A stretch of DNA of 64,000 bases from an uncultured virus (IMG/VR IMGVR_UViG_3300003322_000453) (IMGVR_UViG_3300003322_000453), one strand, 5' to 3'. Shown: positions 21,673 to 62,407, numbered from the stretch's first letter. Numbers and translations are program-made. The notes: a model not told the origin generated them from the letters alone.

Positions 21673-21729
21673 TTCTCTTTCTCCTTCAATACTCTATAGA
21701 AATAGCGCAGCGTGTACGCTGGCAGGTTG

Positions 21730-21759
21730 AGAGTACCACGACCAGTTGTCCACTGTCAA
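21730..21759 (-). promoter_or_regulatory. sigma70-like promoter
   Basis: TTGACA-18-TACTCT with TG-n extended -10. Confidence 0.55.
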
Positions 21760-21922
21760 CCACGAATTTTGATGCAAAATTAATGCCACAACTCTCCTAA
21801 TCCTAACATATCATAGTGAGATTTAACCGTTACATACCTCCTATTTAACCTCTCTATTTCACCTTATAACATACTGTGTACAATAGACTTATCCTATCCT
21901 ATAGTTGTTTCTATAAAAAAGC

Positions 21923-21952
21923 TTGCCTTTCTCAAGTCATTTAACCTATTAT
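21923..21952 (+). promoter_or_regulatory. Promoter giving a probably leaderless transcript
   Basis: TTGCCT-18-TATTAT; ATG 21960 follows after 7 intervening nt with no SD. Confidence 0.45.
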
Positions 21953-21959
21953 AAAAGCT

Positions 21960-33842: not shown

Positions 33843-34036
33843 CAACAGAAGCTAATATAGAACATTCCAGATTTAAAGCCAATCACAATAAGTTCTCTAA
33901 ACATGGTGGTTCTATCTTCTCAGTTCTAGAAGATAATGGAGAACCAATTAAAGAAGCTACATTTACAACTAAGGATAGTAGAGAGTACATAGTTAAGAAC
34001 GGAACTATTAGGAGAGTTAGGAGAACAACTAAATGA
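33824..34036 (+). CDS. Hypothetical protein
   Basis: Overlapping operon ORF. Confidence 0.5.
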   Translation: MEEKKITTEANIEHSRFKANHNKFSKHGGSIFSVLEDNGEPIKEATFTTKDSREYIVKNGTIRRVRRTTK

Positions 34037-36342
34037 GCTATCTAGAATCTCCCTCAACTGATTTCAACCTCCCACCCTCTCAATTTTCCCAGTATGATTG
34101 TCCATCTATATTCAAAAAGCTAGGCGATACCTACGTCTATAAACCAACCAAAGAACTCCATGCTGAACTAGGCTTGTTCATCCGCAACTGCATAGACGAA
34201 GGTTCTAACTTTATCAAGAACTCCCGCGCTTATAGTTCCATCTATAACGCTATTGACATCATTTGTAGAGCAACAGAACCCTACACTCAAAATCTAACTC
34301 CCGCTAGTTTACCGAACACCACCAAACAACCTAACATCTCTAATGTATGGGCTAATAACACCAAGCGCCAAATAGCTGAAGTCTGCGCCACCCTTTCTAA
34401 TATCCGCCCTAGCTGGGTCTATGAACCTAACTCCCGTAGTGATGAAGACTCTTTACAACGTGCACGTGTACAAAACGGCCTTAGCGATGACTGGTACTCC
34501 AACAGCGATGTTGACATCACCCTAAGAAAGCTGTTAGAGTTAGGAACCGTAGAAGGTACAGGCTATATATCCCCAATATGGAATCCAGAATTAAACAACG
34601 ATGAAGGAGGTATTGAGTTAAAACTCTACCGCTATAACGAAGTCTTACCAGTTCAAATAGGCCGCGAATACGACTTACAACGTGCCTATGCTGTGGTGTT
34701 AATAGACGAAATGCCTATTAACCGCGCTAGGAAGATATTTTATCAAAAGCGTGATGAACTTGTTCCTGATCGTGGAGAAACCCGCCTTGCCAGAGGTTCT
34801 ATCTACAGCGCAGCAACCAATAAGATCAAAGGCTTTTGGGATGCTATAACAGCCGGAAACCGCGAACAACGTAAAACTTTTCCTTGCCCAGTTGTAGATG
34901 TTCTCTACACCTATGTTGATGATTTCTCTATCAATCCTACTAATGAAGAAATCCTAATGGGAGACTTTGACTCCAAGCGTAACCCTCTAACCTCATGGTC
35001 TTATAAAGTCCCTTATATCAATCAACCTATATTTGATGGTTACAAAGCCGATGGCTCTATTAAAACAAGAAATGCAACTGCTAGGGATTGCCGCCTTTAT
35101 CCTAATCGCCGTCTTATAATAGCAACTAAAACATGCATCCTCTATGATGGCCCTTCTTATTGGATGCATCGTAAGGTGCCTGTTATTAAATACAGTCCTG
35201 ATGAGTGGATTTTTTCTTATCTAGGCTTTAGTATGGCTGCCGAAGTCTATAGTTTAGATGTTTCTGCTAACAAGATGTCCAGAGATGTAGAGGATGCTTT
35301 ACACCTAAAACTAGACCCACCTATGGCTGCGGACAAAATGCAGATGTCCAAATCCCAAGCAGAAACCAATTCCTTACGAACCCCCGGTAAGAGGATATTA
35401 GGAAATCTTAGTATGGGGGATTTCATGAAACCCTTAGTTCCCCCCGAAAACTATGAACTAAACCAATCTCATTTTGAATTCATAGAGAAAACCGTTGATA
35501 AGTTAAAAGAACTATTAGGCATCCAAGACCTACGTGCGCTTATGCAAGCTCGGCAAGTACCATCTAGTGATACCATCTCTCAATTCTTCAGCCAAGCCGG
35601 TGCTCTTGTAACCAAGATGTCTCGCTCCCTCGATCCTGTTATGAAATTCATAGCCGATTGCAATCTTGGTTATTTCTATCAATTCTATGACATCACCCGT
35701 AGAATTAAAATCTTAGGTAAAGATGGCTACACAAAGATAGACTTTGACTACGAACCCGGAACCTTAATTCCTAAAACCCTCCCTTATGAACCTATGGTAG
35801 ACCCACTTACCCACAAGATCGTTCAACAAGGTGGTATTTATCTTTCTAGCCAAACTGAACGCGCGAAGTATGAACTCTCTAACTACCGAACCTCAATAGA
35901 AGCCACATCTCTACACCAAATAACCCACATGCAACGTAAGCTTTTATTGATGCAATCCACTAAACTATTCCCCGGCTATCCCTTAGTAGACCCAGAAACT
36001 ATAGCCAAGCAACTAGACATCCCCAATTGGGGCCACTTAGAAGGCGATACTGTTCAACAAAAGCTCTACAGTTGGATGCAGGCTATGAAGGATTTCCAGA
36101 TCGAAACTCAGATAGATATGGGGAAAGCTCAACTCTTGTTGCAAATGATGGCAGCTATGAATTCTCCTATGGGACAAATGCTAGGTGCTGTAGGTAGTCT
36201 AGCAGGCCAAGCTTCAAACGGTTCTCCTCCACCTACTAACGGCGCAACCCCTAAAAGCGAAGGTAGACCGCCTGATTTCAATGGTCCTCCCACTCTAGTC
36301 AACAAAGCCGGGGATAGAACAACCATAACAGGACACCAATAA
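34033..36342 (+). CDS. Portal protein
   Basis: 769 aa after TerL; GTGY..P.W, YPNRRLI...DGPSYW.H..P, Q/M-rich C-terminus. Confidence 0.8.
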   Translation: MSYLESPSTDFNLPPSQFSQYDCPSIFKKLGDTYVYKPTKELHAELGLFIRNCIDEGSNFIKNSRAYSSIYNAIDIICRATEPYTQNLTPASLPNTTKQPNISNVWANNTKRQIAEVCATLSNIRPSWVYEPNSRSDEDSLQRARVQNGLSDDWYSNSDVDITLRKLLELGTVEGTGYISPIWNPELNNDEGGIELKLYRYNEVLPVQIGREYDLQRAYAVVLIDEMPINRARKIFYQKRDELVPDRGETRLARGSIYSAATNKIKGFWDAITAGNREQRKTFPCPVVDVLYTYVDDFSINPTNEEILMGDFDSKRNPLTSWSYKVPYINQPIFDGYKADGSIKTRNATARDCRLYPNRRLIIATKTCILYDGPSYWMHRKVPVIKYSPDEWIFSYLGFSMAAEVYSLDVSANKMSRDVEDALHLKLDPPMAADKMQMSKSQAETNSLRTPGKRILGNLSMGDFMKPLVPPENYELNQSHFEFIEKTVDKLKELLGIQDLRALMQARQVPSSDTISQFFSQAGALVTKMSRSLDPVMKFIADCNLGYFYQFYDITRRIKILGKDGYTKIDFDYEPGTLIPKTLPYEPMVDPLTHKIVQQGGIYLSSQTERAKYELSNYRTSIEATSLHQITHMQRKLLLMQSTKLFPGYPLVDPETIAKQLDIPNWGHLEGDTVQQKLYSWMQAMKDFQIETQIDMGKAQLLLQMMAAMNSPMGQMLGAVGSLAGQASNGSPPPTNGATPKSEGRPPDFNGPPTLVNKAGDRTTITGHQ

Positions 36343-38366: not shown

Positions 38367-39482
38367 ATGGGACTATTCGATGAACTCAACGCAACCACTC
38401 TGCGGGTTATTCGTCCTAAGATCATCGCGGACTTGGCGTTTATGAAATCCTCGCCTTTTCTCGCTTATTTAAGAGCACAAGCCTTACCACACGATGGAGG
38501 CGCAGGAATTCAAAACACCTTTATCATAGGCAAAACAGTAGGTGGCCCATATGCAAAGGGTGACACCTTTGACACAACCCGCCAACAGTTGCTCGACGCA
38601 AACATGTTCGATGTTCGTTACTACGAACAGAACGACACTCAATACCTAGAAGATATTGATGTAGAGAACAACGGAGCCGCTAAGGTTTTCGACATCGTTA
38701 CAGCGCATCAAGAAATCTTGATGATGACGATGAACGAGAATCTAGCTATTGAGATGTATCGTCATGGTCAAGCCGCAACCTTAGACACCCGCATTACCTC
38801 TGTAAATGGCTTGGCTGAACAGTTGAACGACGGTCTTAACAATAGCTGGGAAGGTAATGTTTTCACTACCTACGGCGGCTATACCCGTTCCACTTCCCTA
38901 GTTGGCCTTAACTCCACTCCATATTTCTTCGGTGACAACGTAACCGGAGCCGCTGGGCCAATCACCTACTCTCAATGCTTAGAACAATTCCTATCCGCCA
39001 AGGGTGGTAATTGGACTCCTACCATTGCTGTAGGTAACAAAGCCGTTTTCGCCTATGTTCTAGAACGTCTGCAACCACAACAGCGTTTCAACGCGGGTGG
39101 TGAGTGGATATGGGGCGGTGATAGTTGGAACCTTATGGGTATGAGGTTCATGGAAGATCAATACTGTCCTAGTGCTAGGTTTGGGGTGAACGACCCTCGC
39201 ACTGGCAACTTCCTAACCTCAACCTTTACTTCTGCCTCTACAGTCACCGCAGCCTCTAATCTCCCAGCATCTACAACCGTAACCGTTGGCGAGACTTTGT
39301 GGTTCTTGAATCCTAAAACCTTCCAGATGCATCTTTCCAATAGTGAAAGGTTCAAGTTTGGTTGGACAGGTTACAAAGAAGTCCAAAACGCAACCGTTGT
39401 AGCTGGGCAACTCTTAGTAGCCTTGAACGTATTAAATCAATTTCCGTGGGCGAATCGCCAGATGTACGGAATTAACAGCTAA
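38367..39482 (+). CDS. Major capsid protein
   Basis: 371 aa; ELNATT..I.D..F..SP.LAYL...GG..I, NGLA..L..G..YGG..R, W.LNP.TF motifs; position. Confidence 0.85.
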   Translation: MGLFDELNATTLRVIRPKIIADLAFMKSSPFLAYLRAQALPHDGGAGIQNTFIIGKTVGGPYAKGDTFDTTRQQLLDANMFDVRYYEQNDTQYLEDIDVENNGAAKVFDIVTAHQEILMMTMNENLAIEMYRHGQAATLDTRITSVNGLAEQLNDGLNNSWEGNVFTTYGGYTRSTSLVGLNSTPYFFGDNVTGAAGPITYSQCLEQFLSAKGGNWTPTIAVGNKAVFAYVLERLQPQQRFNAGGEWIWGGDSWNLMGMRFMEDQYCPSARFGVNDPRTGNFLTSTFTSASTVTAASNLPASTTVTVGETLWFLNPKTFQMHLSNSERFKFGWTGYKEVQNATVVAGQLLVALNVLNQFPWANRQMYGINS

Positions 39483-40570: not shown

Positions 40571-41617
40571 ATGGGACAAACATACAAGCAATTCTGGACA
40601 GAGCTTGCTAATGCAATTCCTAAGCTTCCTATCCCCTTAGCTCAACGCTTTGTCAACCGCGCTTGGCATGACATCCAAGACTCTAGACAGTGGAGCTTTC
40701 TAAAATCCAATGGAACCTTATACTGTCCACCTGTTATAACAACCGGGACATTTTCTGTCTCCCTAGGCAACCCTATAGTTGTCGCAAACACAGCCGCTAG
40801 AACCGCCCTGACCTCTTTAGGAACTGGCCCGGAACTCTCTAAGCGTCAACTCCGTTTCGGCTCTGGTGCTACCCCTGTTTATTCCATCTCCTACATAGAT
40901 ACCGACTTCACAAACAATGGCATTCTCTATTTAGATATGCCCTATCAATCCCAAACCACCTCTGCTATAACCTATCGTTGTTATCGTTGCTACTATGGCC
41001 CACCTTTAGTTGAAATCCTAGACTCTAACGGAATCCCTACAGGGGAGTTTCTAGAAACATCAGATTTTCTACGCTATGATGACATCTATAACCCCCTAAC
41101 TCGGCGTAGATTTATTCTCCCCGTTCAACCTAGAGAACTCTTAAACATCCGTGACCCACAACGTTCTATCACGAACAATTTCCCCTCTTTTATGTTTGCC
41201 TATAAATCCATAAATAATATCCCTTATTTTGAACTTTGGCCGCATCCAACTACAGAACTAACATATATCTGTTCATTTCAACGTAAAGGCTTAGATTTCC
41301 AATCTGACTCAGAAACTCTACCTATCATAATTCCTGATGAACTTCTAAGCGAGAGAATGTTGTTTTATGGTTGTGAATGGGCTTCTAAGAATGTTTCTAG
41401 ATATACTGAATTAAAAGGTGTAAACTGGCGGTTAGAAATGCAGGAACATAAGAAAACATATTCTAACATTGATTCCAAAAATCCCGGCCTACTTGAAATC
41501 GCACAACGTAATGATGAGGAGAACTATCCTCAGAACACCATTGTTAATGCTCTTAACTATGCTACGTACCCATTAGGATATGACGATTTGTTTGTCTATC
41601 CTAACTTAGTAATCTAA
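40571..41617 (+). CDS. Head-tail adaptor protein
   Basis: FVNRAW..I...RQWSFL; ELWPHP. Confidence 0.65.
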   Translation: MGQTYKQFWTELANAIPKLPIPLAQRFVNRAWHDIQDSRQWSFLKSNGTLYCPPVITTGTFSVSLGNPIVVANTAARTALTSLGTGPELSKRQLRFGSGATPVYSISYIDTDFTNNGILYLDMPYQSQTTSAITYRCYRCYYGPPLVEILDSNGIPTGEFLETSDFLRYDDIYNPLTRRRFILPVQPRELLNIRDPQRSITNNFPSFMFAYKSINNIPYFELWPHPTTELTYICSFQRKGLDFQSDSETLPIIIPDELLSERMLFYGCEWASKNVSRYTELKGVNWRLEMQEHKKTYSNIDSKNPGLLEIAQRNDEENYPQNTIVNALNYATYPLGYDDLFVYPNLVI

Positions 41618-42091: not shown

Positions 42092-44227
42092 ATGACAAAG
42101 TTTACGCCTGAAAAACTAGGGATGTTTCTCTTAGCATCCCTAGTTTCCCTATTAATTCCTACCTCTACAGCCGGGCAATCCTATTCTAAAATCCAAGGAT
42201 GGGCCGAACAAGGGGGCTTGCCTGTCACCGTGCTAGGCTCTACATCTACTACGAAATGGCAACAGTCCTATCCATCTTGTACTATATCTGTATTTAACTC
42301 AGGTACAGTTGTCCTAGCCTCTATATTTTCTGATAATAGTGGAACTCCAAAGGCCAACCCATTCACCGCAGATTCCAACTCCTACTGGTACTTCTACGGC
42401 ATTGTCGGCACTACCTACGACGTTCGTTTTAGTGGAACAGGTATTACTACTCCATTCACTCTAGGCGGCTTCACCGCTGGTGGCGGTGGTGGAAGTTCTA
42501 TATCCATAGGCACTATCAACTCTCAAGTCAAATCTTCTAACGGCTTAGTAATAACTGGCGGCTCTCTAGTCGCCCAAACCGCCGATGCATCCTTTCCCGG
42601 TCTAGTATCAACCACAACCCAAACCATAGCGGGTGTTAAAACCTTAACCAATCCACCAACCCTAATATCAACTCCTGTAGGTGATCCCGGCCAAGGTAAT
42701 ACTAATACCGCTCTTACTTTCCGTGGTGCTGATTCATCTAGTGGTTCTCCTTCTAGCAGCGTCAACCCATCAACCTATTTACAAACCTTGCGAACCGGCC
42801 AGTCTAACGGAACTCCTATATTTGGTTTCCTAACTAACTTTCAGTTGTTGGGAAGCGCAGGCGGTGACACCTACGCAAACTACTACATAAGCCGTATATC
42901 CCCAGATATGACCGGCCTACCTGTAGCAGCTTATTATCACGATGCCCTTAGAAGTTATATCCTCTTAAACCCAACAAACATAGTCCCCGGCCAAGCCATC
43001 GCAGGTTACGCAGCACATATCCAAGCAGAACGCAACACTAGCGGCTTTCGTATAATGCCAGCTTTGTTTGAACTCCGTAATGCTTCTGGTAGTGATGCTA
43101 ATGTTTCCACTGGTAGTGCTGATAGCACCTTTGCCTATGCAACTTCCTATGGTGGAGATTCCCACAACACTGGTTTATGGTTTATAGAAGGACAGGGTAA
43201 CTCCACAGCGGCTTATTTCGGTATCTATGCAGAACCTAACAGCCTAGCCCAGCGTGTTCTAGACTTCTCTCAACTCTCTTTCACCCTACAAGGTACATGG
43301 GCTGCTACAAATGGTAGTGCAACTGTTACAGGAACCAACGGCCATGCTGGGGTTGAAGTTGTAGCAGGGGATTATCTTACAATAAATGGAACCGTTGCTA
43401 GAGCGGCTTCTGCAACCGCTAACTCTATAACCCTTACTTCTACCTTCTCTGGTTCAACCGGCTCGTCTCTAACCATAACCAAGCCCGTTCAATTCGCTTG
43501 GCTTCGTAACAACCAGACTATCTCATCCTACAACGCCGCAGGTTCTAGTCGTTATGAACTCGCCCGCCTAAACCCTTCTGACATCTGGACTCTAGATGCT
43601 GACTCTAGAGGTATAACATTTGGCTCCTATGCAACTCTTAACACCACAGCCCTTACTCTATTACAATCAACCCCTCTAATAACTGGCGCTTTCGGCGGTG
43701 TACAAGGCATGACCTTCCAAAGCTCTACCCTCAACTCTAGTACTAGAGTTTCCTTCATCCCCAATGGCGCTAGTGGGTCATCTGATTTTATCGTCTGGGC
43801 AGGTTCTAATACCGCTTCTGCTGCTTATTTTCAATTCCAAGCTACAGCAGCGGGACATGTTATGAATTCCGGCTTCACTGCTGGTGGTGTTCAGCCTCTC
43901 TCTATCCAGATGCAGGGAGTAACCATTGCCAACTTCACCACATCTGGCATCTTTAGTAGCTTTAAAGGGGCTGATGTTGCTTCTGCTGCTACTATAACCC
44001 CTACAGGAAATCTTTTCCACGTAACAGGCGTTACAACTATAACTAGCGTTAGCGGAACAGGCATAACCGCAGGCACCACCATCACCTTGATATTCGATTC
44101 AACTGCACAGGTAACGGATGGCTCGAACTTAAAACTAGCCGGAAACTTCACAGGTGGTGCGGATAGAACCCTAACCCTCAAATACGACGGGTCTAACTGG
44201 TTTGAGATAGCTAGATCAACCAACTAA
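42092..44227 (+). CDS. Tailspike/fibre-like protein with N-terminal signal peptide
   Basis: Signal peptide MTKFTPEKLGMFLLASLVSLLIPTSTAG/Q; head-binding-like ISVF..GT...IFSD..TP.ANPFTAD..YFY; G/S/T-rich beta body. Confidence 0.65.
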   Translation: MTKFTPEKLGMFLLASLVSLLIPTSTAGQSYSKIQGWAEQGGLPVTVLGSTSTTKWQQSYPSCTISVFNSGTVVLASIFSDNSGTPKANPFTADSNSYWYFYGIVGTTYDVRFSGTGITTPFTLGGFTAGGGGGSSISIGTINSQVKSSNGLVITGGSLVAQTADASFPGLVSTTTQTIAGVKTLTNPPTLISTPVGDPGQGNTNTALTFRGADSSSGSPSSSVNPSTYLQTLRTGQSNGTPIFGFLTNFQLLGSAGGDTYANYYISRISPDMTGLPVAAYYHDALRSYILLNPTNIVPGQAIAGYAAHIQAERNTSGFRIMPALFELRNASGSDANVSTGSADSTFAYATSYGGDSHNTGLWFIEGQGNSTAAYFGIYAEPNSLAQRVLDFSQLSFTLQGTWAATNGSATVTGTNGHAGVEVVAGDYLTINGTVARAASATANSITLTSTFSGSTGSSLTITKPVQFAWLRNNQTISSYNAAGSSRYELARLNPSDIWTLDADSRGITFGSYATLNTTALTLLQSTPLITGAFGGVQGMTFQSSTLNSSTRVSFIPNGASGSSDFIVWAGSNTASAAYFQFQATAAGHVMNSGFTAGGVQPLSIQMQGVTIANFTTSGIFSSFKGADVASAATITPTGNLFHVTGVTTITSVSGTGITAGTTITLIFDSTAQVTDGSNLKLAGNFTGGADRTLTLKYDGSNWFEIARSTN

Positions 44228-44242
44228 CAAAGGATAAACTTT

Positions 44243-44524
44243 ATGAGAAAACCAATCCTAGTAACAATCTTCTTCCTTTCCTTCGTAATCATAGCAGAAC
44301 AATCCTCTGTCCAAAACAAAGACGATGCTAAAACCGAACCAAAACCGATTCAAATAACCGATCAAGCAACACAAGCAGAAATGCAAACTGCTTACAACGC
44401 TATAGTAATGGCTAACAAGGACTTTCAAATAGCTATTCTAAAGGCTAAGGTTAAATATAAAGTCCCTGAAGATTGGGAGTTTGATGCCTCCTCTCTAAGC
44501 TTTAAACCACCTAGGAAACCATAA
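44243..44524 (+). CDS. Signal-peptide/anchor-bearing small protein (chaperone- or spanin-like)
   Basis: MRKPILVTIFFLSFVIIA then a helical segment. Confidence 0.55.
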   Translation: MRKPILVTIFFLSFVIIAEQSSVQNKDDAKTEPKPIQITDQATQAEMQTAYNAIVMANKDFQIAILKAKVKYKVPEDWEFDASSLSFKPPRKP

Positions 44525-44532
44525 ATTAAGTT

Positions 44533-44688
44533 ATGAATAAGCTAACGCTCTATATAGGCTCACTACTCATGCTGCTAATTGCTGGTCTATGTACTTATAA
44601 AGGTCTTATAGAACTCGGCAATCCTATGTACTCTGGTGGTGTAGTATTATTCTTTATAGCTATATCTCAACGTAAGTCTAGTAGATAA
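44533..44688 (+). CDS. Small two-TM membrane protein (51 aa)
   Basis: Manual: MNKLTLYIGSLLMLLIAGLCTYKGLIELGNPMYSGGVVLFFIAISQRKSSR. Confidence 0.55.
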   Translation: MNKLTLYIGSLLMLLIAGLCTYKGLIELGNPMYSGGVVLFFIAISQRKSSR

Positions 44689-44691
44689 GTT

Positions 44692-46059
44692 ATGTCCTAT
44701 AGTTGGAAAACATTTGGCTCTAGTAAAACCGACCTCTTAGGCCGATTAGGAGACTCTACATTCTGGACATCCACCGAGGTTGGTTTCTACCTAATAGAAT
44801 CCCTACGCACCTACAACCTAGTAGCCCAGTTCTACCATGATCGTTTTTTCTTTAACACTCAAGCAGGCTTTTGCTATTATGACCTAACCCAAAACACCAA
44901 TCCCTCTTCCCTAGTCGCCGGTATAGGTGCTAACTCTTCCTATTTAGGCTACACCATCACCGACCGGAATATGGTAAACCAAATCCAGTATCATCTAATG
45001 GAACCTCAAACCTCCATCTGGCCTACTTGGAATGGTTCTGAACAGTTCACTATGGATGATGTTGTAAGAGCTATAGAACGGCGTAGGAACCAGTATCTCT
45101 CCCTAGTTTCTTCCCACGTTACTCGTTCTCAATATCCTTATGGCCCACCACCCGGCACAGGTCGCATTACCATAGACGATTCCGTTATAGACATTCACCG
45201 TGGTGCTTGGCTTGATCTAGACCTTCAATATACCCCTTTATATAAAGAAGACGAATACAACGCCTCTACTCTCCTAGCAGGTTGGGAAACCACCCCATCA
45301 ACCCCAACCATGTTCAGCACTATCTTATCTCCCCCTAAAGGTCTACAACTTATCCCTTTGTCTAAAGACCTCGGAACCGTTGACATCTTAACCATTAACA
45401 ATCCCTCTAATCTCGACGTATCAACCGGAGTTCTCCTAAACATCCCAGACGATCATAGCTGGATTATTAAATGGGGAGCATTAGCGGATTTGCTAGGCCG
45501 AGATTCACAAGCCTACGACCCTGTACGTTCTAAATATTGCGAACAACGTTTTGAGCATGGTATTCAACTTGCCATCGCAGACAGTTGTATCTACCAAGCC
45601 TTAATAAACAACTCTATAATCCAAGCACAATCCTTAAACGATTTTGATTCCTATAACTATAACTGGCAAAATGAAACTGGCATCCCTACTGAGCTTGCCA
45701 TCATCAGCAGAAACCTCATCGCCCTAACCCCCACTCCACAAGATTCAGGAACTTCTATAGCTCTAAACGTTCTCCGTAATGTCCCTATCCCCTCAAGTGA
45801 TGGAGATTTCCTACAAATCAGCCGGGAAGCCTATGATCTACTTCTAGACTACGCCTATCACCTAGCAATGTTCAAATGTCAAGGAACTGAATTCCAAGGT
45901 TCATTCCCAATGCTTGATCGTTTCATGCAATCTGGTTTACTCAACAACTCTAAACTTAGCGAGAGCGCTAATAGTTATTCTATAATGAAAGAACTATCCT
46001 CTAAAGAATTAATGGAGGATAGGAGAATTACGAGTAGGGAGGATTCTAACGATGGCTAG
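44692..46059 (+). CDS. Second adaptor/tail tubular A-like protein
   Basis: LGD..FWT..E...YL.E N-terminus, repeated W..E.G.P / L.P.P units, LLDYA.HLA.FK. Confidence 0.55.
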   Translation: MSYSWKTFGSSKTDLLGRLGDSTFWTSTEVGFYLIESLRTYNLVAQFYHDRFFFNTQAGFCYYDLTQNTNPSSLVAGIGANSSYLGYTITDRNMVNQIQYHLMEPQTSIWPTWNGSEQFTMDDVVRAIERRRNQYLSLVSSHVTRSQYPYGPPPGTGRITIDDSVIDIHRGAWLDLDLQYTPLYKEDEYNASTLLAGWETTPSTPTMFSTILSPPKGLQLIPLSKDLGTVDILTINNPSNLDVSTGVLLNIPDDHSWIIKWGALADLLGRDSQAYDPVRSKYCEQRFEHGIQLAIADSCIYQALINNSIIQAQSLNDFDSYNYNWQNETGIPTELAIISRNLIALTPTPQDSGTSIALNVLRNVPIPSSDGDFLQISREAYDLLLDYAYHLAMFKCQGTEFQGSFPMLDRFMQSGLLNNSKLSESANSYSIMKELSSKELMEDRRITSREDSNDG

Positions 46060-46303
46060 ATATAAAGTTACATACTGCGTTTTCTCATCCGATTCAGACA
46101 ACACCGCCGAGAGTTCTTTTGCTTATGAATTTGAAACCGATACCAACAATTATAGAGATATTCATGAAATCATAGATGAACAAATACAAAGAGATGATAG
46201 CTACAGGGGATATAAAATAGTTAGCCTAACTGCTGTAGAAGAGGAGGAATCTGAAAATGCCAGCCAAGAGCCAGAATCAAGCAATAGTAGCAGCGATAGC
46301 TGA
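46052..46303 (+). CDS. Acidic hypothetical protein
   Basis: GGAGG RBS, overlap with the upstream gene. Confidence 0.55.
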   Translation: MARYKVTYCVFSSDSDNTAESSFAYEFETDTNNYRDIHEIIDEQIQRDDSYRGYKIVSLTAVEEEESENASQEPESSNSSSDS

Positions 46304-46430
46304 ACATCACCCTGAGAAACTTTATAAACGTAACAAGTCTATGGCTAATATATCCAAACAGGAACTACATAAATATGCTTCTACTAACCGTAAAAACCTA
46401 CCTAAGAAGTCTTCTATGTCTAAGCGTTAG
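46257..46430 (+). CDS. DUF3008-like small basic protein (57 aa)
   Basis: Manual: MPAKSQNQAIVAAIA...ELHKYASTNRKNLP; GAGGAGG RBS. Confidence 0.65.
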   Translation: MPAKSQNQAIVAAIAEHHPEKLYKRNKSMANISKQELHKYASTNRKNLPKKSSMSKR

Positions 46431-46449
46431 TATTTTTATAGGATTAGAG

Positions 46450-49400
46450 ATGGGTGATTATCAACATAAACAATCCCGGTTCTTTTTTAAGGGTGTTCAA
46501 CTCTCCCGCGCTATTGACTCCTTAGACGAATTCAAAGCAATCATAGCCAAGAATATCCGTCAATATCAACTTGGTGTAATAACTCCCCGTAAAGGTCAAA
46601 CCGCTGTTTATTCTGATACTCTTTCCCAAACCAATATCCACTCTATTAAACGCCTAAACAACGACATCCCAACCGCTAGTCAATCCTACGCTATCATCAT
46701 CGGTGCTGGCTCAACTCTCTACAGCGACAACTCAACTCACACCACTATAAACAACAGCCGAGCTACTGGCTTTAGCGGCAACCCTTTAAGCATAATCCCA
46801 TTCCGCCCTAACAACAGCCCTGAACCTTACGCCTATATAGCTGATAGTTCCAAAATGGGCAAACTCAAGATAGACGGAACTTTCCAAAACCAAGGTATAT
46901 TCCCTCCAACTGTTGCTCCATCTTACACCCTCGCTCCCCCAACTAGGATAGACATTGACACCTTTACCTCTGCTGGTTCATGGACAGCCGCAGGGTCTAT
47001 AACCGCTGTAGGTAAACTAGCGACCATAACCAGCTTTGCCACTGTAAACTTTATCCTCTACGACTCTGGTTCAACTGGCTGGTGTTCAGTTGGTATGTCT
47101 GCCACTTACACCGGAGCAACCGAAGGAAACCGTATAGTCTTCGATCAAGTTGGCCCCAACTTTGAGGTTACCTATATAGAAAAAGTAATCCCCGGTATTT
47201 CTAACACAACCATCCGTTCTATAACCTATGATGCTGGTACTACTGGACTATGTACTATAGTTCTAAACAAAAACTCTAAACGCCGGGTGCAAACGGATGG
47301 CCTTATTCGCATCAACGCTGCTGAGACTGTTAAGATATTGTCAACCTCAATAGGCGATGATGACCAACAATCATTCCGTTGTTCTACCACTGTCAACCAC
47401 GTCGCAGGAGAATCAGTAACAGGCATAGATTCTTTTAGATGTGTTACGACCCTAGCTCATGTTGCAGGGGAAACCCTAGGTATTCCTGTTCTACAGTTCC
47501 AAGGTGCAGGAACAACTGGTGTAGGTAGTCTAACCCGCACTGGTTTAACATTAGACCTTACTAACATCTCAGGTCGCCCTGTTCAAAACACCGATGAGAT
47601 GGTATTCATCATCCGTGTTCAAGAAGTTTCTCCTAATAATGTAGATGAAATTCAAATCCTCTTAGACTGTGGAGATGGAACATTCACCGGAGATTTCTTT
47701 ATGAAATCTATCCGTCCTAGTGATTTCCAACCAACCGCTAATCAATCTCAAACAACTCAGGATGCTAGAACTAATGCTATACAATCCCAGATTATTAACA
47801 CTACAGAAGTAACTCCGCAGGAAACACAGGATCAACTTAGAGCAAGGTTGTTTAGAAGATTACAAAAGGCTATACAAAATAGTAATTCTAAACGTGCTGG
47901 TAGACTCCAACGACGTATAGATGAATTATCAACCCCTCCTCAAACTCCTATAGACCCTCCATCTAGCGGAGGCGGAAGTTTATCTAGTGAAATCGGCCAA
48001 GCAGGGCCAGATCAATTCTGGGTTCTACGTTTTAGAATAGTAGACCTTCTTAGAGTTGGTTCTAATTCTGGTGTTGGATTAAAAAATATAAACGCCCTGA
48101 GAATGAATTTCTTTATCAATGCATCCGCAGGTGTAGGTGATCCGGCGTTTCAAGCTTCTGCATGGTGGATAGGTGGTTCCTATGGCCCAGATGTAGGAGA
48201 CACCGGGATTCCCTACACTTATAGGTTCAGATATAGAAGCTCATCAACTGGTGCTAGAAGCTTTCCATCTCCCTCTCTTAGAAGTGCTGTTATAGTAAAA
48301 CGTGGTAGGGTTCAACTGACCGCTACAGGTTCTAGTGATACTCAAGCGGACAAGGTAGATTGGTTTCGCTTTGGTGGTTCACTAGGCGTTTGGAAATATA
48401 TAGGCACCAGTCCAATATTAGGTGGTAGTTCATCCTTTAACGATGATTTCCCTGATGATGTTCTTCTTAATAAAGAAGAACTTGTATTTACCGACTTCCA
48501 ACCTTTCCCTATAGTCTCTACCCCTATAACTGGAACTGTCAACGTTTCTGGTACTATGGTTACTATAACCAGCGGGGCTGTTTCTACTTCTATGTCTCTA
48601 GGTACTGAAATTATAATAAACGGACGTTCTTGCACACTCTATGCACCCCCTTTATCAACCACTAAGTTTGAAGTAGTAGAAGACCTTGGAACCTTAACTG
48701 GCGTTACCCTTTTTATCCCTGAACCCCTACTCGTTGGTCAACCACTCCCGGCTATGTGGGGACCGTATGGTGAAGGTTTTCTAGACACAGTAATGTTTGC
48801 TTGCGGTGATCCTATAAACCCAGGCACTTTATACTGGACTAATCCATCCGATCCTGATAGTGCTAGTGATAAGAACCAACTTGAAATTACCAGTCCTAGT
48901 GAACCACTCCTAAACGGTTTCCTCTTCAACAATACCGCTTATGTTTTCTCTATATCTGATCTTTATGTTATTTATCCTGATCGTACAGTTGAAGGACGTT
49001 TAACATTCAAATCAAACAAAACTGGCTTAGGTTTAGGACTCGCAGGGAGGTTTTCATTCTGTATAGGAGAATCAAAACTGTGGTTCGTTTCTAAAGATGG
49101 TATATACTATAGTGAAGGTTCAACACCTGTTAGTATAACCGATGATGATTTATACCCCTTGTTTCCTCATGATGGTTTAGTAGGTTCTAACACCAATGGC
49201 TTCATAGCTCCTGACTTTTCTAACGGTAATAACCTCCGTCTTAGTATAGGAGATAGTTTCCTTTTCTTCGACTATAAAGGAACTGACACCAGCTACTACA
49301 CTTGGCTCTATGACATAAACAATAAAATCTGGTACTTTGATTCCTACGGTCGTCAGGTTATAACTCGTTATTATGAAGAAGATGATCTTTCACATCGTTG

Positions 49401-50703
49401 GCTTATGGGAGCTTCTAATGGAAAGTTATATAGTTATAATGGAACCAGCGATGATGGAATAGCTATAGCTTGTCAACTAAGAATGGGATGTGAGAACTTT
49501 GGGGATGCGAGGTTGAACAAAATCATAGGTGAAATCTATCTAGACTATGACCCAGATGGGGCTAACATAACTGTTCAACCTGGGTTTGATAATTACACCA
49601 CTTTACCAGCATCAACCGTTCTAACAAACACAGCGGGACGTAGACAGCAAGTTATAGACATCAACACAGGCGCAGGGACTTTAATTAAAAACATAACTCA
49701 TGACATCTCATGGTCATCTCTAGTCGCAACTCCCTCTCTCTACCTATTCGACTATTATTTCCTAATCAAAGTTGTCTCAACCTTCCGCCGTTTCACTGAC
49801 TATGACGACCTTGGCTACACCGGGCCTAAACTTATTCGTGGTCTTAGAATACGTGCTGATACAGAAAACATTGCTAGAAATATCCGTATTCAATATGATA
49901 ACGTTTTAATAGGCGTAGATTTAAGTGTACAACATAATGGGGAGTTGATAAAGAGCTATAATGTTCCCTCACCCTTCATGGCTAACCTAGTCCGTGTAGC
50001 TCCACAAGATGCTTCTTTATGGAGACTCTACGATGTTGACTTCATCTATGACAAATACCCAGACTTAGACAACATTATAGACTCATGGACTAATGGAGGA
50101 AGTTTAGAGGATAAATGGTTGCAAGGTGTTATTCTAAGGGCAGATAGTAACAGTCAAGATGTTCAAGTGATAGTTCGTAGTGATGATGGGAATGTTATTA
50201 GCACTCTAACTTGTAACCATAGAGTAGATCAAGTTAAACCTTACACTTGGCCTCCTTATATAACCCACGAAATGCGTTTAGAACCACAGGGGGATATTAG
50301 AATCATAGATGCTAAGTGGGTATATGAACCCGAACCTGAACTTACTAATTATTGGGTATCCCAACCAACCGGACATGGCTTAAAAGGTTTCCAACATCTT
50401 AAAGACATCTATATTGCTATAAGATCGACTGTTGATCTTTTATTTAGAATAACCATAGACGGTACGAATTATGATTATAATATAGCAAACACAGCTGGGG
50501 TTTATCGTCGCATTTACCTTCCTTTGCAAGCCGTAAAGGGTAAGGTTTTTCAATACAGCCTAACCCCCTTGGCTGGTACTACAGGGTTTAGAGTATATGA
50601 GAAAGATTTTTCCGCTAGGGTTAAGGAATGGGGTTCTGATGGAGAATACCTAAAGCTTAATCCTATAGGACATATCCACAATCTAGAAGGGGCTACCATA
50701 TAG
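46450..50703 (+). CDS. Tail nozzle/stabilisation protein (P22 gp10/T7 gp12-like, expanded)
   Basis: Size and position; NIRQY..G.ITPRKG N-terminus, LYWT..PDS, WFVSKDGIY beta-propeller-like segments; true start likely 46450. Confidence 0.65.
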   Translation: MGDYQHKQSRFFFKGVQLSRAIDSLDEFKAIIAKNIRQYQLGVITPRKGQTAVYSDTLSQTNIHSIKRLNNDIPTASQSYAIIIGAGSTLYSDNSTHTTINNSRATGFSGNPLSIIPFRPNNSPEPYAYIADSSKMGKLKIDGTFQNQGIFPPTVAPSYTLAPPTRIDIDTFTSAGSWTAAGSITAVGKLATITSFATVNFILYDSGSTGWCSVGMSATYTGATEGNRIVFDQVGPNFEVTYIEKVIPGISNTTIRSITYDAGTTGLCTIVLNKNSKRRVQTDGLIRINAAETVKILSTSIGDDDQQSFRCSTTVNHVAGESVTGIDSFRCVTTLAHVAGETLGIPVLQFQGAGTTGVGSLTRTGLTLDLTNISGRPVQNTDEMVFIIRVQEVSPNNVDEIQILLDCGDGTFTGDFFMKSIRPSDFQPTANQSQTTQDARTNAIQSQIINTTEVTPQETQDQLRARLFRRLQKAIQNSNSKRAGRLQRRIDELSTPPQTPIDPPSSGGGSLSSEIGQAGPDQFWVLRFRIVDLLRVGSNSGVGLKNINALRMNFFINASAGVGDPAFQASAWWIGGSYGPDVGDTGIPYTYRFRYRSSSTGARSFPSPSLRSAVIVKRGRVQLTATGSSDTQADKVDWFRFGGSLGVWKYIGTSPILGGSSSFNDDFPDDVLLNKEELVFTDFQPFPIVSTPITGTVNVSGTMVTITSGAVSTSMSLGTEIIINGRSCTLYAPPLSTTKFEVVEDLGTLTGVTLFIPEPLLVGQPLPAMWGPYGEGFLDTVMFACGDPINPGTLYWTNPSDPDSASDKNQLEITSPSEPLLNGFLFNNTAYVFSISDLYVIYPDRTVEGRLTFKSNKTGLGLGLAGRFSFCIGESKLWFVSKDGIYYSEGSTPVSITDDDLYPLFPHDGLVGSNTNGFIAPDFSNGNNLRLSIGDSFLFFDYKGTDTSYYTWLYDINNKIWYFDSYGRQVITRYYEEDDLSHRWLMGASNGKLYSYNGTSDDGIAIACQLRMGCENFGDARLNKIIGEIYLDYDPDGANITVQPGFDNYTTLPASTVLTNTAGRRQQVIDINTGAGTLIKNITHDISWSSLVATPSLYLFDYYFLIKVVSTFRRFTDYDDLGYTGPKLIRGLRIRADTENIARNIRIQYDNVLIGVDLSVQHNGELIKSYNVPSPFMANLVRVAPQDASLWRLYDVDFIYDKYPDLDNIIDSWTNGGSLEDKWLQGVILRADSNSQDVQVIVRSDDGNVISTLTCNHRVDQVKPYTWPPYITHEMRLEPQGDIRIIDAKWVYEPEPELTNYWVSQPTGHGLKGFQHLKDIYIAIRSTVDLLFRITIDGTNYDYNIANTAGVYRRIYLPLQAVKGKVFQYSLTPLAGTTGFRVYEKDFSARVKEWGSDGEYLKLNPIGHIHNLEGATI

Positions 50704-50721
50704 TTTATAAGGAAACATAAA

Positions 50722-50907
50722 ATGCCTTTACCATTTCCTAACCTCCCTTCAACAGTTGACTCAGCTACTAGAGAATACCTTCGCCTAATTCATTCTAAAC
50801 TCACAGAACTAGAAACTGAAATAATGAAACTAAAACAATCTACAAGCATGTTAAACAAACGTACTTACTCCTTAGAAGAATTAGTGAAGACAATAAAAGA
50901 TGACTAA
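50722..50907 (+). CDS. Small coiled-coil virion protein
   Basis: Follows the nozzle gene. Confidence 0.5.
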   Translation: MPLPFPNLPSTVDSATREYLRLIHSKLTELETEIMKLKQSTSMLNKRTYSLEELVKTIKDD

Positions 50908-51631
50908 ACCCTCAAAACCAACTGGTCTATATGGTAGCCGTACAAGTAGACAATCTCAAATCCCATACGCCCCTATTGTCTCTTCTCTTCCACTTCTAAA
51001 CGATCCTCAATCTCAAAATGGTTCTCTAGTTGTCCTATCCAGTGGCAATCCTATAATAGACGGTCTATACTCCTTCACCTCCTCCCCCTTGCCTGGTTCA
51101 TGGACTCAAGTTAGTGCCTCTAACAACTATGTCCTAGCTGGTTATAACTCAACTCCTGTTACAGTAAACGCTAATACCACCAGCGAACAAAACCTAATGA
51201 GCGTTGTTCTGCCAGATAATATTCTAAATCAAGTCGGTAAGGTTTTTAGAATAACTTCTAAAGGAGTGTATGTTGTAAACGCCGCTGGTACTGATTTCAC
51301 AGTTAGAACTTATATCAACTCCACTGCTATCTCCGATCATGTTCTAACCTTAAACCCTACAGGCACCTTAGTAGAACTTGGTTGGCGTAGTGTTGTTGAG
51401 TTTATAGTAACGACCAATGGGGCGTTAGGGAATATAGAAACCTCATGGTGGGGTATAGCGCAGGTGTCAACATCTACAAATCCTGGTGAATCTACTGTTG
51501 ACTCTAGAGTTAGTACACTTAATCTTGATACGACTGGAACTCCTACTATACAGATTAAGTGTCTATTCAGCGTTGCATCCATTAATAACGCTTGTTCGCA
51601 GAGAATTCTACTTGTAGAGAAACTTAACTAA
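50900..51631 (+). CDS. Putative tail-associated beta protein
   Basis: Beta-rich C-terminal domain, position. Confidence 0.5.
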   Translation: MTKPSKPTGLYGSRTSRQSQIPYAPIVSSLPLLNDPQSQNGSLVVLSSGNPIIDGLYSFTSSPLPGSWTQVSASNNYVLAGYNSTPVTVNANTTSEQNLMSVVLPDNILNQVGKVFRITSKGVYVVNAAGTDFTVRTYINSTAISDHVLTLNPTGTLVELGWRSVVEFIVTTNGALGNIETSWWGIAQVSTSTNPGESTVDSRVSTLNLDTTGTPTIQIKCLFSVASINNACSQRILLVEKLN

Positions 51632-51635
51632 ACCC

Positions 51636-51664
51636 TTTACTTTCCATTATTAATATGATAGCTT
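51636..51664 (+). promoter_or_regulatory. Internal sigma70-like promoter
   Basis: TTTACT-17-TAGCTT with TG-n. Confidence 0.4.
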
Positions 51665-51701
51665 TGATCCGACTTCATACCCAATAGGAGGGCTAACCCC
51701 A

Positions 51702-52022
51702 ATGTCTGTGGCAGTTATGAACACTTCCATTACCTTAACAACAACTGCACAATCTCTATATTCTCTATTAGCCGCTATAAACCCCAATGCCATGCGGAAC
51801 TGTGCCGTTGTAGAAATACAAGGCGACGATGCTAACGTCGCCAATTATATAATTGGCGACTCCCGTTTGGCTACTAATAACTATTCCTACTCCGGTCAAA
51901 ACGCTGGGGACTTTTATAAGGATGAAAGTAGCAATGATATAAACAACGTTAGCCTTACGGTGTTATATATAAGAGCGGTTAGTGGAACTCCTACAATCCA
52001 CGTTAAGATAAGGACGGTTTAA
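51702..52022 (+). CDS. Small beta-sandwich virion-like protein
   Basis: AGGAGG RBS; VEIQ..N...IGD...LYI. Confidence 0.55.
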   Translation: MSVAVMNTSITLTTTAQSLYSLLAAINPNAMRNCAVVEIQGDDANVANYIIGDSRLATNNYSYSGQNAGDFYKDESSNDINNVSLTVLYIRAVSGTPTIHVKIRTV

Positions 52023-52024
52023 CT

Positions 52025-53074
52025 ATGATAAAGAAAACTCTATTCATTATTTTCTTTTTATTCGTTATATGTTCTACTATCAACGCTCAATCAAGCAGTG
52101 ATAACACCCGGCGTATATGGAGTGGCACGGCTGACCCAGCAATTTGTCAACCATCTGGAACTAACATTTTCTATCGTAGTGACACTGGAACTCTAAAGAT
52201 TTGTACTTCTACTAACACATGGACTCCCCTCGCTTCTGGCTCTAGTGCTATAACTGGTTCAGGAACTACTAACATTATTCCATTATTTACGGGTGCTAAT
52301 AGCATAGGTAACAGTCCGTTCTCTTATTCTGGTTCTTCTTCAACTTTACAAACCACTGGTCTAGCAGATTTTAATATTCTGTCTGGAAGTGGAGAGTATC
52401 AAATAGGAGCTAGTGCAGATAATTTTATTAAAATATCTAAAGTTGGTTTAAATCAATGGCACGTAAATCCCAATGATTTAATGTTAGATACTACAACTGG
52501 TAGAGTACAAATAGGTGATGCACAAGGAGGGGGGAATAACACTCAACTTGATCTAAGTGATTTAGATGGGCATATAAAACTTAGATCAATAACAGGTACT
52601 ATAAGTATAGGAGATACAGAAGGAGAAGCAAATAATGTTAGAGTAACTGTAAGTGATACATCTCAAACTATAAACATAACCTCTCTAGGTAATATAAGAT
52701 TAGGAGACACAGATGGGTTAGGTTCTAATTCTCTAGTTAGTATAAACGATACCACTCAAGTAGCATCTATAGTATCAAACACTATAACACTAAATGGGAA
52801 TCTAACCCTTAATAAAACTATAACTCCCAGTGGAACAGTTGGCGCTAGAACTATTAACAAAACAACTGGTACTGTGAACTTTGCTGCTGCTGCTACAAGT
52901 CTAGTAGTAACCAACTCTTTAGTAAGTACATCGTCTATTATAATCTGTACAGTAGGAACTAACGACACCACCTTCAAATCAGCGCAATGTGTGGCAGGGA
53001 GTGGAAGTTTTACTATCTTTGCCAACGCTGCTGCGACTGCGGAGACTAGGGTGAACTTTGTAGTGACGAATTAA
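52025..53074 (+). CDS. Fibre-like protein with Sec signal peptide
   Basis: MIKKTLFIIFFLFVICSTINA/Q; FYRSDTGTLKIC..NTW, GSGT.N.IP.FT....IGNS, IGD..G.GN repeats. Confidence 0.65.
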   Translation: MIKKTLFIIFFLFVICSTINAQSSSDNTRRIWSGTADPAICQPSGTNIFYRSDTGTLKICTSTNTWTPLASGSSAITGSGTTNIIPLFTGANSIGNSPFSYSGSSSTLQTTGLADFNILSGSGEYQIGASADNFIKISKVGLNQWHVNPNDLMLDTTTGRVQIGDAQGGGNNTQLDLSDLDGHIKLRSITGTISIGDTEGEANNVRVTVSDTSQTINITSLGNIRLGDTDGLGSNSLVSINDTTQVASIVSNTITLNGNLTLNKTITPSGTVGARTINKTTGTVNFAAAATSLVVTNSLVSTSSIIICTVGTNDTTFKSAQCVAGSGSFTIFANAAATAETRVNFVVTN

Positions 53075-53087
53075 CCAAGGAGAAATC

Positions 53088-53609
53088 ATGAACAATAAGA
53101 TCAAAGCACTTTTATTGTTAGGGATTTATATAGTTGGGGTTGCAGTTTGGGCTAATACCACATATCCCACATCTCTCTATCAAGCATCTGATACTTGTTC
53201 AACAGGTCAATACCTAGTAATGGATGCTAGTGGGAAGAGGTATAAATGCCAAACAGGAACCTTAATCTATAAAGCCACTGGGGTTAATTTAAACAGTGCA
53301 AACACCGACGTAGCTAGCATAGCCGGGTTACCTTCTTCTTATATAGTGAGAAGAGTAACAGTAACCAATGCATCTACTACCCCTACATTAGCAACTTATA
53401 GTCTAAGAACCGCGACAGGCGGTGGGGGTGTTGCGATTGTTAGTGCCCAGCTTTTAACTGCTTTAAGTGCAACAACCAAGTTTGTAGACTCCACCTTGGC
53501 TATAACCGCTGATATACAAACAGCTTCTACTCTCACTGTTAGATGTATAGCCGCTAATGGATCAGCACTAACTGCGGATTTTGTTATAGAGATAACCCCG
53601 CTTTTATAA
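53088..53609 (+). CDS. Beta-rich protein with Sec signal peptide
   Basis: MNNKIKALLLLGIYIVGVAVWA/N; CSTGQYL...YKC. Confidence 0.6.
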   Translation: MNNKIKALLLLGIYIVGVAVWANTTYPTSLYQASDTCSTGQYLVMDASGKRYKCQTGTLIYKATGVNLNSANTDVASIAGLPSSYIVRRVTVTNASTTPTLATYSLRTATGGGGVAIVSAQLLTALSATTKFVDSTLAITADIQTASTLTVRCIAANGSALTADFVIEITPLL

Positions 53610-53616: not shown

Positions 53617-53988
53617 ATGATACAAGAAGAACAAAAGGTGGTTCTTAGGTTTTTAGAACCTAATGAGTTTTATAAGCTAGAAGGAGTCTATAAAGAACAC
53701 GACGACGCTCTACCTAGCCCAGAACTCTCATCAATCCTAGTAGCAGAACTGGAAGATGAAACCATCATTGGTTTCTGTGCAGTTCAACTTAACCCCTTCA
53801 TAACCATGTGGATTCAAGATGAATATAGACATAATGGGATATGGAAGGAACTGGTAGAGGGTGTACAACAACTACCAATTGTGATGAAAGCTAAGACTTA
53901 TATTGTAGCGAGTAGGATAGAAACAGTGGCTATGTGTCAGATGCTAGGGCTTAGGTTGATTGATAAACCAGTTTTTGTGAAAGATTAA
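53617..53988 (+). CDS. GNAT-fold protein
   Basis: IIGF...MWIQDEYRHNGI; usual podovirus position before the ejection proteins. Confidence 0.6.
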   Translation: MIQEEQKVVLRFLEPNEFYKLEGVYKEHDDALPSPELSSILVAELEDETIIGFCAVQLNPFITMWIQDEYRHNGIWKELVEGVQQLPIVMKAKTYIVASRIETVAMCQMLGLRLIDKPVFVKD

Positions 53989-62116: not shown

Positions 62117-62407
62117 ATGACCACCGCTAACGACTACAAACGACTAGAACTAAAACTAGCCGAGCTAAGTTCCATCACCGAACGGGTGGTTGAGAAAGTC
62201 GCTACTATGGATAGCAAAGTAGATAAGGTTTCCACTAAGCTAGATAATCTCCAAGACACTAAGGTAAATAATACAATAACCGACATAGCCGTGCTAAAGG
62301 AAAAGGTTTATAGACTTCAATCCATAGTTTATGGGTCTATGTCGGTTATTGGTGTACAAGGGCTAGTTATTATAGGAGGGATTATATTATGGCTGGTGAA
62401 GAGATAG
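62117..62407 (+). CDS. XhlA/holin-like protein (coiled coil plus C-terminal TM)
   Basis: IAVLKEKV..LQSIVYGSMSVIGVQGLVIIGGIILWLVKR. Confidence 0.55.
   Translation: MTTANDYKRLELKLAELSSITERVVEKVATMDSKVDKVSTKLDNLQDTKVNNTITDIAVLKEKVYRLQSIVYGSMSVIGVQGLVIIGGIILWLVKR

Follow-up and report, generated by a model that had tools for sequence, protein, structure and literature searches.

Why should the tailspike and fibre-like proteins of a tailed phage begin with signal peptides? The question is raised by a 64,000-nucleotide stretch of DNA from an uncultured virus (IMG/VR IMGVR_UViG_3300003322_000453), here called the window, in which four genes of the tail module encode proteins with hydrophobic N-terminal leaders. 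The accepted view is that a tailed-phage particle is put together entirely within the reducing cytoplasm, and its fibres normally lack signal peptides. A first-pass annotation of the window had suggested that the receptor-binding parts of this phage are exported, folded or disulfide-bonded in the periplasm and added to the virion at lysis. Our analysis indicates that export of the tail-module proteins via Sec is highly probable. Export with periplasmic folding appears well supported by sequence comparison, namely by a leader that ends near the start of a conserved domain, by leaderless sister proteins and by a covarying cysteine pair. We regard the full sequence of Sec export, periplasmic folding and attachment at lysis as probable. 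The features on which the argument turns are the following:

42092..44227, + strand: 711-aa tailspike or fibre protein, with a C-terminal domain of about 80 residues common to other spikes and fibres
42092..42175, + strand: putative Sec/signal peptidase I-type leader of the tailspike (residues 1-28), with predicted cleavage before Gln29; the leaders of homologues stop at a similar position
42176..42487, + strand: predicted head-binding (particle-attachment) domain of the P22/Sf6/Pam1 type, from an AlphaFold2 model and structural matches, with Ala10 and Cys35
44243..44524, + strand: 93-aa exported or membrane-anchored protein without Cys, from a family with hydrophobic N-termini
52025..53074, + strand: 349-aa fibre-like protein with a leader, an N-terminal Cys-pair module and a second, C-terminal Cys pair
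53088..53609, + strand: 173-aa protein with a leader and an N-terminal Cys pair, its Cys module also occurring in a fibre of a related viral locus, L067

All four open reading frames (ORFs) are present at these starts, and each product opens with Met, followed by Lys or Arg and then by an uncharged hydrophobic run, in keeping with the signal-peptide starts of the first-pass annotation. The 10-residue Kyte-Doolittle maxima are 2.79 (711-aa), 3.09 (93-aa), 3.65 (349-aa) and 2.85 (173-aa). The features of a Sec/signal peptidase I substrate (basic n-region, uncharged h-region and small residues at -1 and -3) are found heuristically in the window genes, and cleavage is predicted, with the small residues judged by eye, at TAG/Q29 (711-aa), IIA/E19 (93-aa), INA/Q22 (349-aa) and VWA/N23 (173-aa). 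The Gln at +1 that had been noticed in two of the genes is found at Q29 and Q22 of these predictions, and the position of the site in the 93-aa protein is uncertain. A crude hydropathy count gave no transmembrane stretch beyond the leader in the 711-, 349- and 173-aa proteins. Shine-Dalgarno motifs precede the starts at 44243, 52025 and 53088; the start at 42092 has no such motif and lies 2 nt past the upstream stop. We also looked for true starts downstream of the hydrophobic segments, and none removes the leader: the 349-aa gene has no further ATG, GTG or TTG within its first 70 codons, and in the 711-aa gene a start at ATG11 retains the hydrophobic run, with the next candidates (codons 43 and 47) lying inside the conserved domain.

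The genes of the window read as a podovirus layout of P22-like portal, major capsid protein (MCP), SU10-type adaptor and nozzle-like protein. From position 30857 the + strand carries a terminase, the P22-like portal, the MCP, the SU10-type adaptor, the 1,417-aa nozzle-like protein and probable ejection proteins, the last so labelled from their gene position. Among the + strand ORFs of this virion cluster (30857-62823), leaders were flagged in the four genes and in three others, namely a 51-aa ORF at 44533, a 25-aa extension upstream of the nozzle gene and a 43-aa ORF nested in a 1725-aa gene. The nozzle extension is spurious, as the family alignment begins at ATG 46450. In 80 related viral loci, the same heuristic found no leader in 350 of 351 core virion ORFs, and the single flagged ORF resembles the nozzle-type upstream extension. 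Because only 1/351 core ORFs was flagged, we consider the heuristic selective.

The leader is a recurrent property of the spike family. Homologous proteins and loci were pooled, those below 60 bits or with late profile starts were dropped, and removal of sequences more than 90% identical reduced 272 to 245 homologues, of which 202 carry a leader, 41 do not and two are unclear; the conservation of signals in homologues that the first-pass annotation had asked about is seen. A hydrophobic leader was present in 48/71 of the first homologues. The protein searches had the leader in the query and favour leader-bearing matches; the viral loci were found through patterns inside the domain, which leaves them unbiased for the leader, and among their 64 classified rows 51 are leader-bearing and 13 leaderless. 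Leaders range from 12 to 37 aa (median 20) and show no sequence relationship, yet they stop only a few residues away from where the domain starts. Nearly all (195/202) combine Met and Lys or Arg with an h-region and an AxA-type site; two are lipobox-like and three resemble twin-arginine translocation (Tat) signals. Leaderless alleles have Met at the domain boundary, with an in-frame stop no more than two codons upstream in 9/13, and because they begin there, a natural mature N-terminus matches the predicted cleavage point.

Leader-bearing and leaderless alleles also interchange. On a capsid tree of 49 rows the leader state changes 8 times, at least 7 of which are forced by well-supported branches, and it is weakly clustered (31/500 shuffles were as low); loci L059 and L031 have near-identical capsids and opposite leader states. 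The interchange is mostly in the tail module. The domain is conserved to the same degree in both classes (51% within each and 50% between), with largely the same core residues, and tip domains are common to the two. For instance, the C-terminal domain of about 80 aa of the 711-aa protein recurs in the leader-bearing proteins of L053, L055, L067 and L074 and in leaderless spikes or fibres of L006, L040 and L047. Other leader-bearing ORFs make up 67/491 near leader-bearing spikes vs 7/137 near leaderless spikes. A genome scan gave two loci, on short contigs of metagenome-assembled genomes of Gemmatimonadota and Rokubacteria, which may be binned phage DNA.

The spike gene itself is mobile, with its leader kept, in L013, L054, L017, L032, L061, L064, L080 and L077, where it lies between the portal and capsid genes, upstream of the terminase or past the ejection genes. 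Very short leader-bearing anchor proteins (204-215 aa, 6-8 Cys) are encoded in L031 (9932-10579) and L038 (9932-10546), and might act as adaptors for separate fibre parts. In L020 (12445), L048 (13536) and L076 (12080), a second spike-like gene carries a head-binding domain variant split by an inserted beta domain, the L076 copy being leaderless.

What directly follows the leader of the 711-aa protein is, in our model, a particle-binding domain, an assignment in which we have good, though not absolute, confidence. The first-pass annotation had noticed a head-binding-like domain at this point, and the AlphaFold2 model (predicted local distance difference test score, pLDDT, 95.7) upholds it. Its top VIA match among 48,161 chains is 7eeq_A of Pam1 (Z 8.3, root-mean-square deviation 3.0, 84 aligned), which we take to be the head-binding chain of the Pam1 spike. 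Tailspike head-binding domains of P22 (2vnl, 8eb7, 8tvr) and Sf6 (7sg7) match at VIA Z 6.8-7.1, with 7.1 to 2vnl_A, 7.0 to 8eb7_0 and 6.8 to 7sg7_A. The best viral-model matches are phage spike or pectate-lyase proteins. Identity to the solved head-binding domains is 6-14%, and no PDB sequence matched at E<0.03. Residues 29-132 belong to a very large family, with 2,594 representatives at E<=0.001, in which the C-terminal parts vary (beta-helix, SASA esterase or glycine-rich domains in 7/13 homologues scanned). The 711-aa protein has no Pfam, PHROG or NCBIfam match, and its body likewise matches no family. The leaderless N-terminus of P22/Sf6/Pam1-type spikes is found in the 41 leaderless homologues and not in the 711-aa protein.

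A cysteine signature accompanies the leader. Both Cys10 and Cys35 are present in 144/202 leader-bearing vs 2/41 leaderless domains (Fisher p 4e-16), and on the capsid tree 8/8 independent pairs go in the same direction (p 0.008). In L076, the pair is found in the leader-bearing allele and not in the leaderless one. Whole leader-bearing spikes of at least 400 aa have a median of 10 Cys, with an even count in 122/183 (p 8e-6), vs a median of 3 Cys and an even count in 20/35 of leaderless spikes. Such coupling is what folding in an oxidizing compartment predicts, and the tracking of the leader by the Cys pair suggests oxidative folding. The paired cysteines that had been described near the N-termini of the two downstream proteins are indeed there: the 349-aa protein has C41/C60 and C308/C322 (4 mature Cys), and the 173-aa protein has C37/C54 plus an unpaired C153. 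Paired cysteines limited to exported alleles are seen for the spike family and the 349-aa protein and not for the 711-aa protein or the 93-aa protein, which has no Cys.

Gene content suggests that the leader-bearing spike belongs to the particle. Fifteen leader-bearing virus records were searched entire for anchor-domain genes, and exactly one was found in 13/13 records at least 90% complete and in one that is 73% complete; the complete genome of the cultured phage Tunturi_1 (gp12) and the window likewise have a single one. Usually the leader-bearing gene is the sole gene of its genome with a head-binding domain, which makes attachment at lysis the most likely fate of the product; were it a secreted enzyme only, a spike of this type would be missing from these phages, though their leaderless relatives have one, and conservation of the anchor would be unneeded. 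The Sf6 tailspike is added last and binds the tail hub laterally through its head-binding domain (PMC9728967, in part), which makes late addition structurally possible.

We hypothesize the following route. Capsid, portal, adaptors and nozzle, all leaderless, would be made and assembled in the cytoplasm, while the tailspike (42092) and the fibre-like proteins (52025 and 53088) would pass the host Sec translocon. Signal peptidase I would trim them, so that the N-terminus of the mature spike falls on or close to the opening strand of the particle-binding domain. In the periplasm, spikes and fibres would fold and, where Cys exist, oxidize. Lysis would open the inner membrane, finished spike-less particles would meet the spikes, and these would clip on via the P22/Pam1-type head-binding domain, with surplus spike set free. 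Translocation, cleavage, DsbA-type oxidation, trimerization, nozzle docking, timing at lysis and incorporation into the virion are all inferred.

Several points weigh against this account. Leader calls are heuristic throughout (Met, Lys or Arg, and an uncharged hydrophobic run), and the cleavage-site scan was restricted to the vicinity of the domain start and biased toward Gln. Generic transthyretin- or CnaB-like folds reach Z 6-7.5, which makes the margin of the fold match modest, and Foldseek gave no match of the anchor domain to the PDB at E<=0.001, its ranks 1, 4 and 5 being Pam1 and Pan3 tail chains. The Cys pair is missing from 58/202 leader-bearing domains, and an independent-pair test on the 103-column domain tree had one supported pair and so no power. 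The 711-aa spike of the window has one Cys, with Ala at position 10, and disulfides therefore cannot explain its export. The virion of Agrobacterium phage Milano has many disulfides (PMC10811340, in part), so disulfides alone do not demand export. A second, leaderless spike stands beside the leader-bearing one in L076 (78% complete), and 7 kb of the 71-kb phage contig lie outside the window. Of the proposal in the first-pass annotation, then, export is supported by comparison, the disulfide reason fails for the 711-aa spike, and attachment at lysis stays an inference.

The alternative that survives best is that the proteins are exported and work apart from the virion. They would be depolymerases, receptor masks or decoys, either soluble or bound to the surface, that remove capsule for the release of progeny or prevent superinfection, and the virion would adsorb through the nozzle insertion and a leaderless 243-aa protein. 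We consider this unlikely. It draws on homologues with beta-helix, esterase and similar sugar-acting domains, on the size of the nozzle insertion, which could bind receptors, on the adjoining leader-bearing and leaderless spikes of L076, and on the leader-bearing anchor proteins of L031 and L038, which are only about 205-215 aa long; bacteria are also known to export phage-fibre-like adhesins, the Bdellovibrio MATs (PMC10769870, in part). A secreted enzyme needs no particle-binding domain, yet the domain is equally conserved in both allele classes, and on the capsid tree one allele class gives way to the other at least 7 times, with tip domains in common. No leaderless copy was found in the 13 near-complete genomes searched, and the lack of a reported integrase in Tunturi 1 and 2 (PMC11924767, in part) weakens an exclusion role of the lysogen type. 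Secreted receptor blockers, which the first-pass annotation had offered as its alternative, are less likely than attachment at lysis.

A somewhat more doubtful possibility is a dual fate or membrane tether, in which an inefficient or uncleaved leader leaves part of the protein in the cytoplasm or inner membrane for conventional assembly, with export as a side route. An ATG, GTG or TTG lies within -3 to +4 codons of the domain start in 16/51 leader-bearing loci, the window spike needs no disulfide, and where the 93-aa protein would be cleaved is uncertain. On the other side, a Shine-Dalgarno motif is missing from all 16 internal codons, and there is none at the leader/domain boundary of the window genes. 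Both the Cys pair that covaries with the leader and the surplus of even Cys counts are consistent with an oxidizing compartment, and the polar, small-residue c-regions argue for cleavage. That the hydrophobic N-termini are artefacts of wrong start codons or chance is very improbable and largely refuted: one spurious extension does occur in the window, upstream of the nozzle gene, but no alternative start lies between leader and domain, leaders mark 202/245 homologues vs 1/351 core ORFs, and GenBank-annotated Tunturi genes have them.

Comparison with cultured phages supports attributing the leaders to the phage lineage. Filamentous (Ff) phages provide a precedent for exported virion proteins, as pIII and pVIII, including the adsorption protein, have Sec leaders and periplasmic disulfides; they remain membrane-anchored and are extruded without lysis. 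The window phage differs in being tailed, in its capsid pre-assembled in the cytoplasm and in having no predicted membrane anchor after the leader in its 711-, 349- and 173-aa proteins. Tailspikes of the P22/Sf6/Pam1 type are cytoplasmic and leaderless. The spikes P22 gp9, Sf6 gp14, Pam1 and Pan3 share with the window spike the head-binding fold and, in its homologues, swappable C-terminal parts, along with a P22-like portal; in the window family, unlike in P22, Sf6 and Pam1, the domain comes after a leader and in most homologues also has a Cys pair. In Escherichia phage Alux-21 and Pseudomonas phage KT1, distant anchor-domain relatives lack a leader and have their N-terminus at the domain.

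Tunturi 1 and 2 (PP887698 and PP885685), 63-kb podoviruses of Acidobacteriota that form clear plaques (PMC11924767, in part), are the only ones among 50,697 GenBank phages that match the window capsid protein. Their terminase, portal, both adaptors, nozzle and anchor domain have counterparts in the window, and their leader-bearing tail genes, as annotated in GenBank, are six consecutive ones (gp12-gp17). They differ in an MCP that is 29% identical, a GC content of 55% vs about 39% in the window, and Cys-rich fibres (20 Cys in gp12). The phrase 'signal peptide' occurs 0 times in the main text and one supplement of the Tunturi paper (PMC11924767). We considered whether an Acidobacteriota host demands export and rejected it: within the first 50 kb of each genome, tail and fibre genes are leaderless in Tunturi 3, which infects the host strain of Tunturi 1, and in Tunturi 4. 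Export is a trait of the phage lineage and not a demand of the host.

Two further systems resemble the window in part. The Bdellovibrio MATs are phage-tail-fibre-like trimers (Caulton et al. 2024; PMC10769870, in part) that have a signal peptide, a conserved beta domain of about 130 aa and variable adhesive tips like the window spikes, but they are bacterial surface adhesins, whereas the spikes lie in a phage virion operon and carry a phage particle-binding fold. Phage Milano likewise has a tailed virion with disulfides in its receptor-binding proteins; there, the disulfides span sheath and baseplate, whereas in the present family the Cys pair tracks the leader. The passages of the Milano text searched (PMC10811340) contain neither 'periplasm' nor 'cytoplasm'.

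The genes around the spike and fibres are leaderless with the exception of those already described and the flagged mini-protein at 44533:

34033..36342, + strand: P22-like portal (PF16510, phrog_156), leaderless
38367..39482, + strand: MCP, leaderless, 29% identical to the MCP of Tunturi 1 and 2
40571..41617, + strand: adaptor-like tail protein with an inserted beta domain, leaderless, matching Tunturi_1 gp11 'tail protein'
44533..44688, + strand: 51-aa hydrophobic mini-protein, no family match
44692..46059, + strand: SU10-type adaptor (PF24175 SU10_adaptor, E 3e-8), leaderless
46450..50703, + strand: nozzle or tail hub with a large insertion (phrog_3287; Tunturi_1 gp31, E 2e-130), leaderless
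50900..51631, + strand: 243-aa protein after the nozzle, leaderless, no family match
51702..52022, + strand: 106-aa single jelly-roll protein, leaderless, model pLDDT 91.7

The nozzle is, by analogy with Sf6 gp8 (PMC9728967, in part), the likely docking site of the spike. An insertion several hundred residues long interrupts it, and a beta domain is repeated about four times towards its C-terminal end; its length among relatives runs from about 950 to 1,445 aa. The SU10-type adaptor seems to consist of two domains in tandem, represented in L033 and L044 by two genes (about 212-240 aa); a six-copy ring of such adaptors could provide six spike sites. The inserted beta domain of the adaptor-like protein is weakly like the side-fibre N-terminus of F2-pyocin (E 0.02). 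The 243-aa protein is a possible needle or short fibre.

The 93-aa protein, which the first-pass annotation had counted with the fibre-like proteins, instead belongs to a small leader-bearing family of 7 loci, the window included, all with hydrophobic N-termini and adjoining a spike or adaptor gene. Its Atlas look-alikes are unnamed phage proteins scoring below 0.9, and it has no similarity to Tunturi gp15; it may be a periplasmic assembly helper. The mini-protein at 44533 had been read as having two transmembrane segments, of which one was counted and the second is a shorter hydrophobic stretch noted by eye.

Downstream of the nozzle, the 106-aa jelly-roll has its best VIA match in PM2 spike P1 (Z 7.8), with cupins and Ena close behind. 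Among the 12 loci with downstream sequence, a leader-bearing gene directly follows the jelly-roll gene in 6, and in 0/4 of these loci with a leaderless spike. The jelly-roll is a candidate for a cytoplasm-made base for the exported fibres, and its pairing with a leader-bearing fibre may point to a second anchor, possibly on the head. The Cys-pair module of the 349-aa protein recurs across 11 loci, counting the window, and almost always as part of a leader-bearing protein; that of the 173-aa protein is common to the 486-aa leader-bearing fibre of L067. Atlas neighbours of the 349-aa protein are unnamed tailed-phage proteins, with the phage-tail-like trimerization region PF26696 at 0.86 as a lead only. 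Searches for homologues of the 106-aa protein and of the N-terminus of the 349-aa protein brought back the query alone, and their relatives came from iteration over related loci; when PDB sequences were searched with profiles of the adaptors, Cys module and jelly-roll, the matches were only weak or repeat-driven. The internal promoter suggested at 51636 did not hold up, as no sigma-70 site lies there and the 30 sites found compare with 30.4 expected.

Elsewhere in the window, GC skew and coding strand both switch at about 21500-22000, the border of divergent early and late arms. The early region includes a 1,135-aa protein without a PHROG match (17970-21377, - strand). A GNAT acetyltransferase gene (53617-53988) lies between the fibre and ejection genes, an arrangement also seen in Tunturi 1 and in four related loci. 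Weak Peptidase M15/endolysin-like matches fall at the N-terminus (56044-56400) of the 1,725-aa probable ejection protein, and no separate endolysin gene was identified within the window. Near the end of the virion cluster, a 144-aa ORF (62389-62823, + strand) resembles, by eye, a lone PAS-domain protein, without a Pfam or PHROG match at the cut-off used. No Rfam matches or tRNAs were found in the window, and a single-protein MCP scan of viral contigs confirmed 0/8 stretches.

Neither part of this system, a P22/Pam1-type spike or a Sec leader, is new in kind; what appears new is their combination. Exported spikes or fibres of tailed phages were not described in the literature we searched, which was mostly open-access, such that an earlier mention could be missed; the nearest papers (PMC13412088, PMC12309495, PMC11474366 and PMC13730344), in the parts available, deal with host DsbA, Lom, lysis proteins or tail architecture. 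Leader-bearing spikes are real, widespread and apparently undescribed. We think it rather probable that they mark a widespread group of tailed phages, whose anchor domain recurs in about 2,600 clusters at 50% identity and whose cultured members infect Acidobacteriota, with two-compartment virion assembly, periplasmic oxidation and spikes snapped on at lysis, whose relatives switch route by gain or loss of the leader. The natural leader-bearing and leaderless alleles, together with two cultured phage-host pairs, make the idea directly testable.

If virion incorporation is true, annotations would change for genes now called 'hypothetical' or mistaken for secreted host-like proteins. Export would account for Cys-rich fibres, guide active expression of these depolymerases and allow fibre exchange among co-lysing phages, and phages could use disulfide-stabilized domains from bacterial secreted proteins. 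One cytoplasmic defence, the Bil system, acts on tail fibres (bioRxiv 10.1101/2023.09.04.556158, in part), and we speculate that exported fibres might be hidden from such defences. The last assembly step would then need host Sec, signal peptidase and Dsb and would occur beyond cytoplasmic defences, which would constitute a new assembly route for tailed phages.

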